40,308 bases of DNA. Source: a virus. Lineage: Duplodnaviria > Heunggongvirae > Uroviricota > Caudoviricetes. Position numbers and translations under genes: made by a program. Each line of letters begins with the position of its first letter. Positions within the stretch are counted from its first letter, which is position 1. The stretch lies in IMG/VR virus record IMGVR_UViG_2778261673_000007. One strand, 5' to 3'. Shown here in pieces: positions 6,094 to 39,204 of this stretch. The notes beneath the pieces were generated by a model. That model was not told where the DNA came from and made no database searches. It was given only the letters and a program-made list of their open reading frames with translations.

Positions 6094-6768
6094 TTAGGCT
6101 TTGATTTTGTATCTTCTTGGTTTTCCTGAGAAAATCACTGTACCAATTATAGAGCAATTACCGTTGATCTTAATGTAAGGCTCAGGCCAGTTTGGGTTTA
6201 ACGCTTTGAGATAACGCTGTGTCCCATCTTCTATCAACCTTTTGAAGGTGGTTTCACCTGTATCGTGCATCAATGCAATAACGTCGTCACCGTGGCAGGC
6301 AGGTACTTCAGGATCGACAAAAATCATGTCTCCCGGGCGGTACTCATCAATCATTGAATCACCTATCACCCGCAAGATATAAGTCATTTCCCCACAGGGT
6401 ACAGGGCAGGGATACGTTTCTGCTGTGCTCAAATCAACCTCAGAATATCCAACTTCTTTCCATGCTCCGGCCTGTACCCATGATATGACAGGGACTAATG
6501 TGATTTGTTTATTAGTGATTGAAACATCAGGTTTTTTTGTGATGTTCGTTGTCTGGTGTTCTTGATCGAGCCATCCGACAGGCAGGTCGAAACATTTTTC
6601 GATGTGTCGTGCCATGCTGTCACCGATATTTTTAGTAGCACCATCTCCCATAAACCTGCTGGTCTGGGTTGGCTCGCGATCAATCATAGTGGCAAAGGAA
6701 GAATTCCCGCCAACACCATCTCTCAGTTTTCTGGCGTTAGACCGCCGGATGTCATGGATTGTTTTCAT
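6094..6768 (-). CDS. cohE: CI-like prophage repressor: N-terminal HTH, C-terminal S24 LexA-type self-cleaving peptidase domain
   Basis: 224 aa; C-terminal region contains the GDSM serine motif and a downstream Lys (TFKRL) typical of S24 peptidases; divergent from a Cro-like gene across an operator-rich intergenic region; size matches the e14 repressor. Confidence 0.8.
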   Translation of the reverse strand: MKTIHDIRRSNARKLRDGVGGNSSFATMIDREPTQTSRFMGDGATKNIGDSMARHIEKCFDLPVGWLDQEHQTTNITKKPDVSITNKQITLVPVISWVQAGAWKEVGYSEVDLSTAETYPCPVPCGEMTYILRVIGDSMIDEYRPGDMIFVDPEVPACHGDDVIALMHDTGETTFKRLIEDGTQRYLKALNPNWPEPYIKINGNCSIIGTVIFSGKPRRYKIKA

Positions 6769-7090: not shown

Positions 7091-7660
7091 ATGAGGCTAA
7101 TCGTGGGTAAGCATCACTGGAAAATAGAAAAACAGCCTGAGTGGTACGTGAAAGCTGTCAGAAAAACTATCGCGGCGTTGCCGGGTGGTTACGCTGAAGC
7201 GGCTGACTGGCTCGATGTAACAGAAAACGCTTTATTCAACCGCCTTCGTGCAGATGGCGATCAGATTTTCCCGCTGGGATGGGCAATGGTTTTACAGCGT
7301 GCTGGTGGCACTCACTTCATTGCTGATGCTGTGGCGCAGTCTGCAAATGGCGTCTTTGTGTCTCTTCCTGACGTCGAGGATGTGGACAACGCCGATATTA
7401 ACCAGCGTCTGCTGGAAGTCATTGAACAGATCGGCAGTTATTCAAAACAGATTCGTTCAGCAATCGAAGACGGTGTAGTGGAACCGCATGAGAAGACAGC
7501 AATTAACGACGAGCTGTATCTCTCAATTTCGAAGCTGCAGGAGCATGCAGCACTTGTCTACAAAATTTTTTGCATTTCAGAAAGTAATGACGCCCGCGAG
7601 TGTGCAGCTCCGGGCGTCGTGGCGTCGATTGCTTCTGGTTGTGGAGAAACTAACGCATGA
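7091..7660 (+). CDS. CII-like phage regulatory protein (YmfL-like, 189 aa)
   Basis: Position immediately after cro and size match the CII/CP76 regulatory proteins of lambdoid prophages; assignment by position and recalled family resemblance only. Confidence 0.5.
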
Positions 7661-7995
7661 ACAGTTTAACAACACACTACCGTCGCTCGCAACTGATTGC
7701 GCTTCCTGTACCGGGTGGAAAAGCGAAGGTGGAATATTGCTATGCAGTGAATGTACCAGGTGGCAGGGTAATTGTAACCCACAGCTTTGCAGAGTGGGCT
7801 GTGGGTGATTTCAACCGGCAAAAGGAGACAGTCCTTTGCGACAAGTTAACCGCTGGTTCAAAGATCACTACGGAGTACCCGTCAGAGTCATTCGTTGGGA
7901 GCCGGAAACACAACGGGTTATCTACCTCCGCGAAGGCTATGAGCATGAATGCTTCAGTCCGCTCGAACAGTTTCGTCGTAAATTCAGGGAAATAG
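7657..7995 (+). CDS. Hypothetical protein (YmfM-like, 112 aa); C-terminal half may be the wrong frame
   Basis: ORF overlaps the upstream stop (ATGA coupling); the N-terminal half looks protein-like, the C-terminal half is Ser-rich and low-complexity while an overlapping frame is more protein-like. Confidence 0.4.
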
Positions 7996-8015
7996 AGGTC
8001 GGTCATGAGCACTAA
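7836..8015 (+). CDS. Possible small overlapping gene (59 aa, TTG start) not in the ORF track
   Basis: AAGGAGA 8 nt upstream of TTG at 7836; translation ...[51 protein letters not shown] has normal protein-like composition; ends at TAA 8013-8015, overlapping the start of the replication gene. Confidence 0.3.
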
Positions 8016-8976
8016 ATTAACCGGCTATGTATGGGATGGTTGCGCAGCGTCAGGCATGAAATTATCCAGCGTGGCAATTATGGCACGCCTGGCTGATTTC
8101 AGTAATGACGAAGGTGTGTGCTGGCCATCAATTGAAACCATTGCCCGTCAGATTGGCGCGGGGATGAGTACCGTCAGAACGGCTATCGCACGGCTGGAAG
8201 CAGAAGGCTGGTTAACGCGTAAGGCGCGTCGCCAGGGTAACCGCAATGCGTCGAACGTCTATCAGCTTAACGTTGCAAAGCTTCAGGCTGCGGCACTTTC
8301 TCAACTGTCAGATTCTGACCCGTCAAAATCTGACCCGTCAAAATCTGACACATCAAAATCTGACGCATCAAAATCTGACCCGTCAAAATTTGATGCGTCG
8401 AAATCTGGCAAAAAAGCGGGTTTTCACCCGTCAGAATCTGGCGGGGATCCGTCAGTAAAATCAAAACATGATCCGTCAGATAAAAAACCTTCTCGTCCGG
8501 ACGCTTCGCAACCGGACACGCAGACGGATGAACAGGATTTTTTAACTCGCCATCCTGATGCGGTTGTATTCAGCCCTAAAAAGCGCCAGTGGGGAACGCA
8601 GGATGATTTGACCTGCGCACAGTGGCTCTGGAAAAAAATCATCGCCCTGTACGAGCAAGCCGCCGAATGTGACGGCGAGGTGGTTCGTCCCAAAGAACCG
8701 AACTGGACAGCCTGGGCAAACGAAATTCGCCTGATGTGTGTGCAGGATGGTCGTACTCACAAACAAATCTGCGAGATGTACAGCCGCGTCAGCCGCGATC
8801 CGTTCTGGTGCCGTAACGTGCTCAGCCCGTCGAAGTTGCGGGAAAAATGGGATGAGCTTTCCCTGCGCTTATCACCGTCCGTCAGCACGTACACCGAAAA
8901 ACGCGAAGACCCGTACTTCAAATCCAGTTACGACAACGTGGACTACAGCCAGATCCCGGCAGGATTCAGGGGGTGA
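8005..8976 (+). CDS. Replication initiator protein (lambda O-like), N-terminal HTH, central repeat-encoded linker
   Basis: Position after cro/cII-like genes; N-terminal helix-turn-helix-like segment; internal tandem DNA repeats (iterons) encoding SDPSKSD repeats, as in lambdoid O genes that contain the origin. Confidence 0.7.
   Translation: MSTKLTGYVWDGCAASGMKLSSVAIMARLADFSNDEGVCWPSIETIARQIGAGMSTVRTAIARLEAEGWLTRKARRQGNRNASNVYQLNVAKLQAAALSQLSDSDPSKSDPSKSDTSKSDASKSDPSKFDASKSGKKAGFHPSESGGDPSVKSKHDPSDKKPSRPDASQPDTQTDEQDFLTRHPDAVVFSPKKRQWGTQDDLTCAQWLWKKIIALYEQAAECDGEVVRPKEPNWTAWANEIRLMCVQDGRTHKQICEMYSRVSRDPFWCRNVLSPSKLREKWDELSLRLSPSVSTYTEKREDPYFKSSYDNVDYSQIPAGFRG
8308..8412. repeat. Seven tandem 15-bp repeats (TCAAAATCTGACCCG and variants): putative origin iterons inside the initiator gene
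   Basis: Read directly: units at 8308, 8323, 8338, 8353, 8368, 8383, 8398, with degenerate copies to about 8480 and an A-rich stretch downstream. Confidence 0.6.
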
Positions 8977-8978
8977 TC

Positions 8979-9467
8979 ATGAGTCTTTTGAATGAAGTTC
9001 AGAAATTCATTGAAGCCCATCCGGGATGTACTTCCGGAGACATTGCGGATGCTTTTGCAGGTTACTCACGGCAGCGCGTTCTGCAGTCAGCAAGCAAGTT
9101 ACGTCAGAGTGGGCGTGTGGCTCACCGTTGTGAAGGAGATACACGCAGACATTTCCCGCGCCTGACTGAGAGAGCGCAGGAACCGGAATCACAACCAGTT
9201 CGAGAAACCAGACCTGTGCGCAATTTCTATGTCGGCACTAACGATCCACGGGTGATTTTGTGCCTGACCCGCCAGGCTGAAGAACTGAAGTCCAGGGGCT
9301 TATACCGTCGTGCTGCAACCGTGTGGATGGCGGCATTCCGTGAAAGCCACTCCCAGCCAGAACGAAACAATTTTCTGGCGCGTCGTGAGCGGTGCTTACG
9401 GAAAAGCAGCAAGCGCGCTGCATCGGGTGAAGAGTGGTATCTGTCAGGGAATTACGTGGGGGCTTAA
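8979..9467 (+). CDS. Hypothetical protein with possible winged-helix N-terminus (regulator?)
   Basis: ATG at 8979 after AGGGGGTG; Arg-rich C-terminus; no secure family assignment. Confidence 0.4.
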   Translation: MSLLNEVQKFIEAHPGCTSGDIADAFAGYSRQRVLQSASKLRQSGRVAHRCEGDTRRHFPRLTERAQEPESQPVRETRPVRNFYVGTNDPRVILCLTRQAEELKSRGLYRRAATVWMAAFRESHSQPERNNFLARRERCLRKSSKRAASGEEWYLSGNYVGA

Positions 9468-10120
9468 TGAGTAATAAATATTGCCAGGCGCTGGTGGAAC
9501 TGCGGAACAAACCAGTCCATGAACTGAAGGAAGTGGGCGATCAGTGGCGCACGCCGGACAACATTTTCTGGGGAATTAACACCCTGTTTGGCCCGTTTGT
9601 TCTGGATCTGTTTACTGACGGTGATAACGCCAAATGTGCCGCGTATTACACGGCGGAAGATAACGCGCTGGCGCATGACTGGTCAGAACGTCTTGCGGAG
9701 CTTAAAGGTGCTGCCTTTGGTAATCCCCCATACAGCCGCGCCAGTCAGCATGAGGGGCAATACATCACCGGCATGCGTTACATCATGAAACATGCCAGTG
9801 CCATGCGTGATAAGGGCGGGCGCTATGTTTTCCTGATCAAAGCTGCCACCAGCGAAGTGTGGTGGCCGGAAGATGCGGACCATATTGCTTTTATTCGCGG
9901 GCGTATTGGTTTTGAACTGCCTGCCTGGTTTATCCCGAAGGATGAGAAGCAGGTGCCGACAGGCGCTTTCTTCGCTGGTGCTATTGCTGTTTTCGACAAG
10001 ACCTGGAAGGGACCGGCAATCAGCTACATCGGGCGCGATGAACTTGAGGCATGTGGTGAAGCCTTTCTGGTGCAGGTTCGCCAGCAGGCGGAAAAACTGG
10101 TCAGGGAGATGGCGGCATGA
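9467..10120 (+). CDS. Phage DNA N6-adenine methyltransferase (Dam-like)
   Basis: Contains the NPPY catalytic motif (GNPPYSRAS) characteristic of N6-adenine/N4-cytosine methyltransferases; start overlaps the previous stop (TAATG). Confidence 0.75.
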   Translation: MSNKYCQALVELRNKPVHELKEVGDQWRTPDNIFWGINTLFGPFVLDLFTDGDNAKCAAYYTAEDNALAHDWSERLAELKGAAFGNPPYSRASQHEGQYITGMRYIMKHASAMRDKGGRYVFLIKAATSEVWWPEDADHIAFIRGRIGFELPAWFIPKDEKQVPTGAFFAGAIAVFDKTWKGPAISYIGRDELEACGEAFLVQVRQQAEKLVREMAA

Positions 10121-35905: not shown

Positions 35906-37795
35906 TTAATCGTATTTTGGCCATACTTTCAATGCAATTTCCCCCAACTTTTTACCTCGCTCCAGTATTTCACTCTCATCCCATTTATCCTTAAGTATAA
36001 GTGGTATGTTCAGTCGTAGATTGGTGTGGACGATGAGAGCATCACGTTTTTTCAGAAATACAGCATTCTGAACGGAACGGTTTACGCTAAGGTTAAGCAA
36101 AGTTAGATTTCCCAACGTAGCTATCGCTTGTTGCCGTTTCCTTACCAGTAGCTGTTCAGGGGTAAGATCGGTTCCAGACAGAACAATTTGGTTCATTACC
36201 GTAGCATCTGAATTTGTCACCATATGACCATTTTCGAGAGGCCAACAGGAATACCAACTTTGAGGCATAAGATGATCGATATCGAGATTAGAAAGATTTG
36301 GAACATCAGGCTTTTCTGTCTTCACTTGGCGACAAAGTTCTCTTTCAAGTTCCGTTAACATTGAGCGCATTTTCGGTGCGTCGAGCCTGCCAGGATAAAG
36401 TGGAGCATTGATGCAAGCGTTGAGAAATTCTGAGTCCCCAGGCCAACGTGAGGCTTCGCCATTTAAGCTATTGAGGATATTACGTAACTCAATACTGGAA
36501 ATTTCCGTTTTAGACAAGTGTCGCAATACATTCATAAATACATTGTTGTAATTCTTTGGCGTCAGGCCACATACGGATCTTCGTACTACGTAGGAGACAA
36601 GATCATTATACATGGCTGCTTTCTCATCATCGGCGATGTTAGCTATCGAAATGAACAAAGCAAGCGGATAGAGTGTCGTCACATCATAGGCTGCGATGCG
36701 ATGTCCAAAGTGTGAGATGGGGGTTGTGCCAAAACCACCAACCAATTCTTTATATTGTGATGCATATTGTTTGAGGCGCTTTACTTGCAGATCTGCTCGT
36801 TGTGAAGGCAAGTCCTTACTTACATAATCACGATACTCATTGTAAAGGCGAGACAGATCAATTTCACGCTGCCTTTCTGATTGCAATGTCGCATGTACAA
36901 GCCACTCCATGCGTGGTTTATTAATACGTCCACGGCGTTGCTTTTCCGACCAGTATTTATCTTCAAAGATCTTCCACTCATTTTCATATAATTCAATAGT
37001 ATTAATATTTTCATGCTCAGCGCACATAAAGATATAGTTGCGAATAAGATCCGTTGCATGAAGTTCCGCTCCTCGCCCATTTAATGTTTCAAAAATTATT
37101 TGGGCATCATCTTCAGCTTCGAGAAATATGCTTACCAGTTTCAGATCCGTCAAGACAGCCTCAATTAGTGCTACAGCATTTTCTTGTGGTGAGCGGTTTT
37201 CTATTTTAATCCATTTTATAAAGGCTTCAGTAAAAAACCATAATGCCTCTAGTGACGGCGGGTGGTTGAAATGTTTACGTAACGTACCATGTTGCGTGAA
37301 GCTATCAGAAAATACATTACGGAGATCGTCAATATTATCAACATTAAGACTTTGAATAAAATGAGTTTGATCTCGAAAAGTTGGCCACAGTTTGAAGCAT
37401 TCTACCTTTTTATTTCTCATCGTTGCTTCGTTTGTATTTTTCAAGCAAGTCAATACTAACCCTTCCAGTTCAGAAAGGCCTGTAGCACGCAATGATAATC
37501 GAATGGATGCCAGAATATATTGAAGAGTGGTTAAACGTTGCTGGCCGTCAATAATATGTATGGTATCTACACCTAACAAGCTGTTTTTGAGTTGAGGTTC
37601 CAGCACCACCGCGCCGAGGAAATGAGGGGTTGGTTTTGTTCCCGAAAGTCGGCTCTGTGCTTTTTCGAAGATATCCTCCAGCAAAGCTGACCATTGGTTT
37701 CGTTGCGTCCATACGTAGGCACGTTGATAGAATGGAACACGATATTGTCGTTGATTTTGGAAAATTTGCTGGATGGTTAGCGTTTCGGATTTCAT
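35906..37795 (-). CDS. GmrSD-family type IV (modification-dependent) restriction endonuclease: N-terminal DUF262, C-terminal DUF1524/HNH-like
   Basis: N-terminal VPFYQRAYVW and IIDGQQRLTTL motifs (DUF262 NTPase-like); C-terminal DIDHLMPQS and GNLTLLNLSVNRSVQNAVFLKKR motifs (DUF1524 nuclease); 629 aa; strongly AT-rich relative to flanking phage DNA. Confidence 0.8.
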   Translation of the reverse strand: MKSETLTIQQIFQNQRQYRVPFYQRAYVWTQRNQWSALLEDIFEKAQSRLSGTKPTPHFLGAVVLEPQLKNSLLGVDTIHIIDGQQRLTTLQYILASIRLSLRATGLSELEGLVLTCLKNTNEATMRNKKVECFKLWPTFRDQTHFIQSLNVDNIDDLRNVFSDSFTQHGTLRKHFNHPPSLEALWFFTEAFIKWIKIENRSPQENAVALIEAVLTDLKLVSIFLEAEDDAQIIFETLNGRGAELHATDLIRNYIFMCAEHENINTIELYENEWKIFEDKYWSEKQRRGRINKPRMEWLVHATLQSERQREIDLSRLYNEYRDYVSKDLPSQRADLQVKRLKQYASQYKELVGGFGTTPISHFGHRIAAYDVTTLYPLALFISIANIADDEKAAMYNDLVSYVVRRSVCGLTPKNYNNVFMNVLRHLSKTEISSIELRNILNSLNGEASRWPGDSEFLNACINAPLYPGRLDAPKMRSMLTELERELCRQVKTEKPDVPNLSNLDIDHLMPQSWYSCWPLENGHMVTNSDATVMNQIVLSGTDLTPEQLLVRKRQQAIATLGNLTLLNLSVNRSVQNAVFLKKRDALIVHTNLRLNIPLILKDKWDESEILERGKKLGEIALKVWPKYD

Positions 37796-38051: not shown

Positions 38052-38077
38052 GGTTGGTGGGTTGGTGGGTTGGTGGG
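38052..38077. repeat. Tandem repeat (GGTTGGTG)x3
   Basis: Read directly, about 260 bp upstream of the GmrSD gene start. Confidence 0.5.
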
Positions 38078-38880: not shown

Positions 38881-39204
38881 TTACTTGAGCCCATATGGGC
38901 ATATTTTTATAATGCAACTATTATGTAAACATTTATTTGTTATTTTGCTTTCTCCTGGAGGACACTCTTGACTGCTTTTGAGTAAACTCCATAAATCCTT
39001 GTTGAATGGTGCGATGTGATAAATAGTAATAGGATATTCTTTATCCTTAAGGATAATACCAGACTTAACCGGTGTAAATATACTGCCAGGAGGGAGAAAT
39101 ATAGTAGATTGATACCAGATGATCATTTTCATATTACCCCATATGGCTGAAAAAGATATACCACATGTAGGTTGAATTACCGTGTCAATTACTATCCACT
39201 TCAT
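38881..39204 (-). CDS. iraM: IraM-like anti-adaptor protein (107 aa)
   Basis: 107-aa AT-rich ORF in the position downstream of icd/e14 where iraM lies in E. coli K-12; identification from recalled size and neighbourhood. Confidence 0.55.

Follow-up and report, generated by a model that had tools for sequence, protein, structure and literature searches.

The 40,308-nt virus sequence IMGVR_UViG_2778261673_000007 (Caudoviricetes), referred to below in its whole length as the window, carries a run of seven tandem 15-bp repeats inside a gene for a replication initiator related to protein O of phage lambda. The question raised by this locus is whether the repeats are the iterons of a replication origin that lies within the gene of its own initiator, as an earlier note made from the sequence alone had proposed, or whether they owe their form to some other pressure on the protein, the messenger or the DNA. 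Comparison of the locus with its relatives indicates that the array is probably the iteron part of the prophage replication origin, situated in the part of the initiator gene that codes for a linker.

An in-frame array of near-palindromic repeats

Analysis with Tandem Repeats Finder gave a single array at 8314–8407 with a period of 15, 6.3 copies, 87% matches, a score of 132 and the consensus TCTGACCCGTCAAAA, which was the strongest tandem repeat of the window by a wide margin. When read in register the array comprises seven 15-bp units over 8308–8412, starting at 8308, 8323, 8338, 8353, 8368, 8383 and 8398, the last of which is degenerate (TCGAAATCTGGCAAA). Further degenerate copies are found at 8428–8442 (CCGTCAGAATCTGGC), 8446–8457 (GATCCGTCAGTA) and 8470–8478 (GATCCGTCA), and the earlier description of seven tandem repeats with additional degenerate copies was correct in content and coordinates. 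The array is in frame with the open reading frame (ORF) at 8005–8976 and encodes the peptide SDSDP-SKSDP-SKSDT-SKSDA-SKSDP-SKFDA-SKSGK, in agreement with the claim that the repeats lie within the O-like gene and code for an SDPSKSD repeat linker; the pentapeptides are of the SD(S/P/T/A)-SK type.

Each unit of the array contains a 13-bp near-palindrome, GTCA(A/G)A(A/T)TCTGAC, with two free bases between neighbours. A search of both strands of the window with the 13-mer GTCARAWTCTGAC, allowing one mismatch, gave 10 matches, all of them within 8307–8442 and none outside it, compared with 0.11 matches expected from shuffles and a maximum of two in 100 shuffles. The isolated copy at 8428–8442 is located 48 bp beyond the last good array unit. 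Many relatives retain this spacing, which ranks second in frequency within the family and makes up 31 of those counted for the main subfamily of 53 genes.

The number of units differs between isolates, as had been anticipated in the earlier note, and it does so in 15-bp steps. The gene was 939 nt long in 76 of 82 close relatives, 954 nt in three, 969 nt in two and 924 nt in one, corresponding to five, six, seven and four units, respectively, with a modal count of five. The gene of the window is one of the two 969-nt copies, while SfII and SfIV carry the same module with five units. More distant protein matches range from 0–1 units (P0016–P0018; P0034) up to eight or more (P0007, P0037). As the period is exactly five codons, units may be gained or lost in frame by slippage or unequal recombination, which would explain the variation in copy number. 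Variation in such steps makes the array prone to misassembly, or to being taken for a frameshift-free indel polymorphism.

Selection on the DNA of the linker region

Relatives of the gene were collected from 79 diverse loci in genomes and 80 close loci in viral contigs, and constraint was measured on 39 deduplicated genes that were less than 85% identical over the first 240 nt. For each aligned column, the fraction of gene pairs with the same amino acid that also used the identical codon was determined for codons of four-fold or higher degeneracy. This same-codon fraction was 0.33 for the N-terminal domain (aa 2–97), 0.77 for aa 99–171 (8299–8517) and 0.35 for aa 172–200. For distant pairs, defined as those with N-terminal domains under 70% identical, the corresponding values were 0.31, 0.66 and 0.28.

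Within the constrained zone the six-fold degenerate serine codons at aa 107, 112, 127, 143, 150, 153 and 158 were identical in 95–100% of pairs, and most serine codons of the N-terminal domain had an identity of only 0.20–0.36 between pairs. The serine codons of the array were TCA or TCT in 82% of cases, compared with 29% elsewhere in the same genes. The proline codons of the spacers between the palindromes gave a same-codon fraction of 0.33–0.35, which amounts to saturation, indicating that the constraint acts at particular sites and did not arise by recent transfer. Constraint at synonymous sites would be predicted for an origin that shares its DNA with coding sequence, and the alignments show purifying selection on 8299–8517 at the level of the DNA, for which a cis-acting DNA element can account and a predicted disordered peptide cannot.

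An overlapping gene was considered as the source of the constraint and rejected. Two alternative-frame ORFs cross the array, at 8246–8458 (plus strand, other frame) and 8267–8464 (minus strand), and the earlier note had remarked that the repeats create spurious antisense ORFs. Over the constrained segment of the 39 diverged relatives the alternative plus frames were open in none and the best minus frame was open in 16, so that neither ORF is conserved and both are regarded as spurious.

A hybrid initiator protein

The translated gene matched the PHROG 391 profile 'replication initiation O-like' over its full length (aa 1–323, profile positions 1–298 of 298, E = 3.7e-134), and Pfam placed an HTH_36 domain (PF13730) at aa 23–70 with 42.8 bits, compared with a curated cut-off of 25 (E = 4.5e-11). 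At the DNA level the gene is approximately 97% identical to its counterparts in Shigella phages SfIV and SfII, and it is the intact version of the truncated gene that adjoins yfdN in CPS-53 of K-12. The DNA match to the K-12 CPS-53 copies (H58–H61) covers query positions 333–972 only (window 8337–8976), starting inside the iteron array, and the tblastn match to loci similar to K-12 CPS-53 extends back to aa 79.

The AlphaFold2 model consists of an N-terminal domain of four helices and a two-strand wing (aa 1–100, predicted local distance difference test (pLDDT) 73–90), a predicted disordered linker (aa 103–170, pLDDT below 50) and a confident helical C-terminal domain (aa 176–290, pLDDT 86–96). 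The top Foldseek matches to the N-terminal domain were MarR/ArsR-type winged-helix proteins, some of them solved on DNA, a similarity at the level of the fold only (E = 2e-3 to 2e-2); a search of solved structures by sequence gave only marginal MarR matches (E about 0.2). The C-terminal domain was aligned by tblastn with lambda O at 39% identity (E = 1e-17) and with phi80 gene 15 at 35% identity (E = 6e-18), the latter alignment being limited to aa 177–288, and BLASTP matched initiator aa 141–287 to lambda O aa 139–270 at 36% identity (E = 1e-25). The Pfam search of the initiator gave no Phage_rep_O match and BLASTP gave no N-terminal similarity to lambda O.

Judged by its sequence, the initiator is a hybrid, in which a predicted HTH_36 origin-binding domain with repeats of its own is joined to a lambda-O-type C-terminal domain, and is not a plain orthologue of O. 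The term O-like, applied to the gene in the earlier note, therefore holds for the C-terminal domain, which is homologous to that of lambda O, and for the PHROG 391 match, but not for the N-terminal domain, which is HTH_36 and outside the family of the lambda O N-terminal domain. The 76 bp at the 3′ end of the gene, up to the PerC-like junction (8901–8976), are 96–97% identical to many Stx2c/Stx2a phages, SfV, mEp460 and the cdtI phage, and have the appearance of a mosaic joint because the initiator genes of those phages are otherwise unrelated at the DNA level.

Repeat form and recognition helix across the family

Every subfamily contains a 15-bp (five-codon) periodic repeat at the same place, with the DNA form NCA-N5-TGA and palindromic arms. 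The family consensus, obtained from 241 units of 53 genes, is ccgTCAaAaTCTGac. The peptides encoded by the repeats vary by subfamily and include SKSDP, SERSE, PETER, PSNID/PSTVD and SEFEG. Genes with the recognition helix STVRT carry the repeat cgTCAaAaTCTGAc (53 genes, 241 units), those with STV(S/K)A carry CAA-N3-TTGA (five genes and locus L164), and those with STVIT or STVIG carry GTTCAGAATCTGAAC or GTCCAGAAWCTGAAC (loci L018, L163 and L162). Across the subfamilies the palindrome arms thus covary with the recognition helix of the winged-helix domain.

The N-terminal domain, the array and the GATC boxes described below move as one module, which is joined either to a lambda-O-type C-terminal domain or to Phg_2220_C. 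An array that serves as cognate site for the N-terminal domain would be expected to travel with it in this way. Two further loci have the lambda-O-type C-terminal domain in other combinations: in L066 (3001–3888) its partner is a distant variant of HTH_36, and the repeat there is of 30 bp and codes for SPGGSEANSPGGAPD, and in L014 it is attached to another N-terminal region without a Pfam match.

The A-rich segment, the GATC boxes and a Dam-family methylase

Directly after the array the segment AGTAAAATCAAAACATGATCCGTCAGATAAAAAACC (8454–8494) forms the least stable 30–40 bp of duplex in the gene. The A-rich stretch that the earlier note had placed behind the repeats is therefore present and coincides with the stability minimum of the gene, although its instability is modest on the scale of the window, as detailed below. 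The sequence GATCCGTCAGTA at 8446–8457 is the most conserved DNA of the constrained zone (90–100% per base), and a second box, GATCC(G/A)TCA, follows 24 bp later. Of the 39 lineages, 37 retain the motif GATCC at the first box and 34 retain it at the second. The aspartate codon at the boxes is always GAT (identity 1.00), compared with about 0.5 for the aspartate codons of the N-terminal domain. Because the boxes are identical in subfamilies with different iterons, they are probably not read by the variable recognition surface.

A gene for a Dam-family adenine methyltransferase is located downstream of the initiator gene. In 34 of 71 diverse loci, this window included, a homologue is located within the 3 kb that follow the rep gene, and a Dam homologue is also found near the module in phiNP, L021 and L011. 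The methylase gene of phiNP comes immediately after the rep gene, and the methylase of L011 is fused to a PAPS-reductase domain. SfIV is without the methylase that SfII and SfV have (SfIV paper).

The GATC boxes may have this methyltransferase as a functional partner. In view of the near-invariant GATCC boxes of the candidate unwinding region and of the Dam-family gene by the module in about half of the diverse loci, the origin could be licensed by methylation. In the fullest form of this proposal, which we consider rather doubtful, firing of the origin would require, or be timed by, adenine methylation or sequestration by SeqA, in the manner of oriC and P1 oriR; its strength would be tunable by the in-frame 15-bp array, acting as a slippage-driven dial on site number and linker length; and the whole would form a lambdoid replicon of a single protein, able to load the host helicase although it has no P, DnaC or DnaB gene. 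The role of methylation is offered as a lead, not as a finding.

A probable origin within the initiator gene, and the alternatives

In the mechanism that we infer, the N-terminal winged-helix domain would bind, probably as dimers, the 13-bp near-palindromes that recur every 15 bp in the array as well as the isolated site at 8428–8442. The nucleoprotein complex would then destabilise the adjoining A-rich segment with its two GATC boxes (8446–8494), making this the presumed site of melting. The lambda-O-type C-terminal domain would recruit the host replicative helicase, either directly or via host DnaC, because the phage is without a loader gene of its own. An origin at this place is supported by relatives in which the gene for this protein is found beside lambda P (L163) or an IstB/DnaC-like gene (L164), and by the complete phage genomes of SfII and SfIV, which share the module.

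Several observations weigh against an origin at this place. No experiment on the HTH_36/lambda-O-C family was found in the literature, and no paper or annotation mapping the origin of this hybrid family was found in the literature on SfV/SfII/SfIV, yfdO/CPS-53, HTH_36 and phi80 gene 15, although older subscription-journal work may exist. The SfII record, which is the sole relative with its features listed in full, has no ori feature, and the SfIV paper is silent on the origin. The A-rich segment is about 64% A+T, ranks in the top 4–6% only of the window for instability and is far less extreme than the AT-rich region of lambda. The 15-bp spacing sets successive dimers approximately 154° apart (calculated with 10.5 bp per turn assumed), and as it differs from the roughly two-turn spacing of the lambda iterons, a wrap resembling the lambda O-some cannot be assumed. 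Some relatives keep just 0–2 canonical units, for example P0016–P0018 and P0034 (128 Salmonella contigs), so that either a long array is dispensable or those prophages are unable to replicate. No P, DnaB or DnaC-type gene is found in the early region of the window, which leaves the helicase-loading step unexplained. The tail of the constrained zone (8491–8517) coincides with the joint at which different C-terminal domains attach, and part of its conservation could reflect recombination instead of origin function.

The most serious rival is that the repeats do bind their own gene product but serve autoregulation, as an operator or a roadblock, or copy-control by 'handcuffing', with replication starting elsewhere. 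This explanation draws on the same evidence for protein-bound DNA, namely the palindromes, the synonymous constraint and the covariation with the winged helix; as an unwinding element the adjoining A-rich stretch would be a weak one, and MarR/ArsR-like folds are typically those of repressors. It is nevertheless considered unlikely, as the position of the array equals that of the annotated initiator-binding sites of lambda and phi80, beside a homologous C-terminal domain, the window contains no other repeat array or motif copy as a candidate origin, and relatives pair the protein with lambda P or DnaC-like loaders.

The zone could also be a recombination joint, a shared linker at which lambdoid replication modules are swapped, in which case frequent exchange in the recent past would account for its high identity, and slippage, tolerated in a disordered linker, for the repeat. 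The attachment of modules of N-terminal domain plus array to different C-terminal domains just past the zone agrees with this, as do the predicted disorder of the linker, the freely variable copy number and a megablast comparison of this gene with phiNP, which matches 8344–8513 only. Recent transfer, however, cannot place saturated spacer codons beside bases that are 95–100% identical, the repeats of the subfamilies differ and track the recognition helix, and the palindromic form is retained despite a different peptide. As a general explanation the joint is therefore distinctly improbable, while recombination may be one reason why the 3′ part of the zone (8491–8517) is conserved.

A linker acting purely at the protein level, flexible, rich in Ser, Asp, Lys and Pro and tuned in length by the number of repeats, with no function for its DNA sequence, is strongly disfavoured and very improbable. 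The segment is indeed of low complexity and predicted disordered, lies between two folded domains and changes length by whole pentapeptides, but selection on the peptide cannot produce a same-codon fraction of 0.77 against 0.33 or the excess of TCA and TCT among the array serine codons, and the peptides differ between subfamilies in which the form of the palindrome is constant. Control of translation or stability of the initiator message by palindrome hairpins is no less improbable, for although the 205 nt of the segment fold much more stably than shuffled sequences (z = −6.5 as RNA, −7.2 as single-stranded DNA), such folding is a trivial outcome of tandem palindromes, the long-range pairing spans several units and is not conservable at copy numbers from 0 to at least 8, the local stems are just 4–6 bp and often mismatched (ATCA...TGAC), and the strongly conserved GATCCGTCA boxes are left unexplained.

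Other signals in and around the array were also examined. A promoter scan gave two weak sigma-70-like matches inside the array, compared with 2.5 expected in shuffles, and inspection of 8455–8490 by eye, with no formal scan made, revealed nothing convincing in the way of IHF-like or DnaA-box-like sites. A terminator-like hairpin on the minus strand at 8430–8417, between the array and the isolated iteron, consists of CGGGTGAAAACCCG followed by CTTTTTTGCC; it is probably fortuitous, its left arm not being conserved in relatives. A link to oriJ of the Rac prophage was rejected, as K-12 YdaU is a DUF1376 protein outside this family; some relatives do occur in a ydaS/ydaT-type context, and no fine map of oriJ was present in the papers found.

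Genomic setting

The window is a lambdoid prophage similar to SfII. Its early region contains, in order, genes for an integrase, an S24-type cI repressor (6094–6768, minus strand), a CII/CP76-like protein and a DUF4222 protein, the repeat-bearing gene, and genes for PerC-like, Dam, LexA-DBD-like, RusA, KilA-N, DUF968 and Q proteins. Shigella phage SfII has its genes from cI to KilA-N in the same order. SfII and SfIV, both deposited as complete phage genomes, have the same arrangement as the window, and the isolation of SfIV is described in the SfIV paper. The coordinates of the features are given in Table 1.

The DUF4222 ORF overlaps the start codon of the initiator gene by 11 nt and immediately precedes that gene in 56 of the 71 diverse loci, and its product may be an accessory of the replication module. 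It also overlaps, in another frame, a 112-aa ORF at 7657–7995 that is SfII_40 in the SfII record; of these two annotations one is probably in error. In relatives the initiator gene is followed by a gene for lambda P (L163), an IstB/DnaC-like ATPase (L164), a DUF1627 protein (L162) or, as here, PerC (L165), so that the same initiator C-terminal domain is accompanied by a dedicated helicase loader in some members and not in others. Toward the right end of the window, at 38052–38077, there is a perfect 8-bp tandem repeat, GGTTGGTG, in 3.2 copies.

Table 1. Features of the replication region, with positions given in the window.
Feature	Position	Strand	Basis
Replication initiator gene, 323 aa, yfdO / SfII_41 family	8005–8976	+	ORF, Pfam, PHROG, DNA identity
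N-terminal winged-helix domain coding region (aa 1–100), presumed iteron-binding	8005–8304	+	AlphaFold2, Foldseek
Zone of DNA-level constraint overlapping coding sequence, proposed origin extent	8299–8517		Same-codon test, 39 relatives
Putative iteron array, seven head-to-tail 15-bp units	8307–8412		Tandem Repeats Finder, register reading, motif search
Isolated conserved putative iteron CCGTCAGAATCTGGC	8428–8442		Motif search and conservation in relatives
Two GATCCGTCA boxes, each with a Dam site GATC	8446–8478 (8446–8457 GATCCGTCAGTA; 8470–8478 GATCCGTCA)		Conservation
A-rich least stable duplex segment, candidate unwinding region	8454–8494		Nearest-neighbour stability scan
C-terminal domain coding region (aa 176–288), lambda O / phi80 gp15 homologue	8530–8868	+	tblastn, BLASTP, AlphaFold2
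DUF4222 gene, conserved upstream neighbour	7836–8015	+	Pfam DUF4222, E = 8.6e-19
Phage Dam-family adenine methyltransferase	9434–10120	+	Pfam Dam, E = 1.4e-45

Implications

At the DNA level the initiator family matches 2,724 of 5,426 complete E. coli genomes, and relatives of the initiator are found in Shigella, Salmonella, Klebsiella, Pantoea, Providencia and others. Members are usually annotated as 'helix-turn-helix domain-containing protein' with no origin marked, and an origin placed at 8299–8517 would provide a concrete annotation for prophages of the SfII/SfIV/CPS-53 type. In a survey of Shiga-toxin phages the replication of modules of non-lambda pattern was said to be wholly unknown (PMC8951638), and the present proposal bears on some of the Shiga-toxin phage replication modules that depart from that pattern. 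The combination of synonymous-site conservation with covariation between repeat and recognition helix is a transferable way to find origins hidden in genes.

Comparison with known origins

Origins that lie inside initiator genes and contain initiator-specific repeats are textbook knowledge for lambda and phi80. The lambda record lists four 'ori iteron' sites at 39034–39118 inside O, and the phi80 record lists four gp15 binding sites at 36663–36739 inside gene 15. When the proteins are aligned, HPSESGG of the isolated unit (8425–8445) is superposed on lambda iteron 4 (YPSKQGD), and the same alignment sets the GATC/A-rich segment on the AT-rich segment of lambda. As in lambda, the proposed origin is placed centrally in the initiator gene, where the coding sequence is that of the linker joining the N-terminal, origin-binding domain to the C-terminal one. 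The C-terminal domains of the two proteins are homologous (36–39% identity), and in both genes several inverted-repeat sites are followed by an A-rich segment. The lambdoid layout claimed in the earlier note, with ori inside an O-like gene, is thus supported by the comparison, through the homology of the C-terminal domain, the position of the lambda iterons and the evidence of selection on the DNA.

Despite this similarity there are differences between the two systems. The N-terminal domain is HTH_36 here and of another family in lambda O, and there are seven 15-bp head-to-tail units in place of four 18-bp sites spaced 20, 24 and 23 bp apart. Unlike that of lambda, the array has an exact five-codon period that permits expansion and contraction in frame, its A-rich segment is weaker and holds two conserved GATC boxes, and no P gene follows.

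The phi80 initiator likewise has a homologous C-terminal domain, with its four gp15 sites in the same relative place inside the gene, and some database sources label relatives of the present protein 'Replication protein 15'. The N-terminal domains do not match, however, and the phi80 sites are of the TTCCCGAAAACGGGAA type with a 21-bp spacing, unrelated to the units found here; phi80 also has a P-like gene 14. In P1 oriR and E. coli oriC repeated initiator sites adjoin an unwinding region with GATC sites. The present locus is similar in having repeated sites beside a candidate unwinding region with GATC, but contains just two such sites.

The initiator genes of P22 and phage L also contain repeats that have been read as origins, comprising four repeats of approximately 20 bp in P22 gene 18 and six imprecise 11-bp repeats in phage L gene 18, the latter a computational assignment only, with a repeat specificity particular to each initiator (PMC8022706). 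These phages differ from the present case in the family of the initiator, in the length of the repeats and in having their own DnaB-type helicase gene (PMC8022706). The array described here would therefore add a further example to the design known from lambda, phi80 and P22, leaving the general picture unchanged and introducing no new kind of system.

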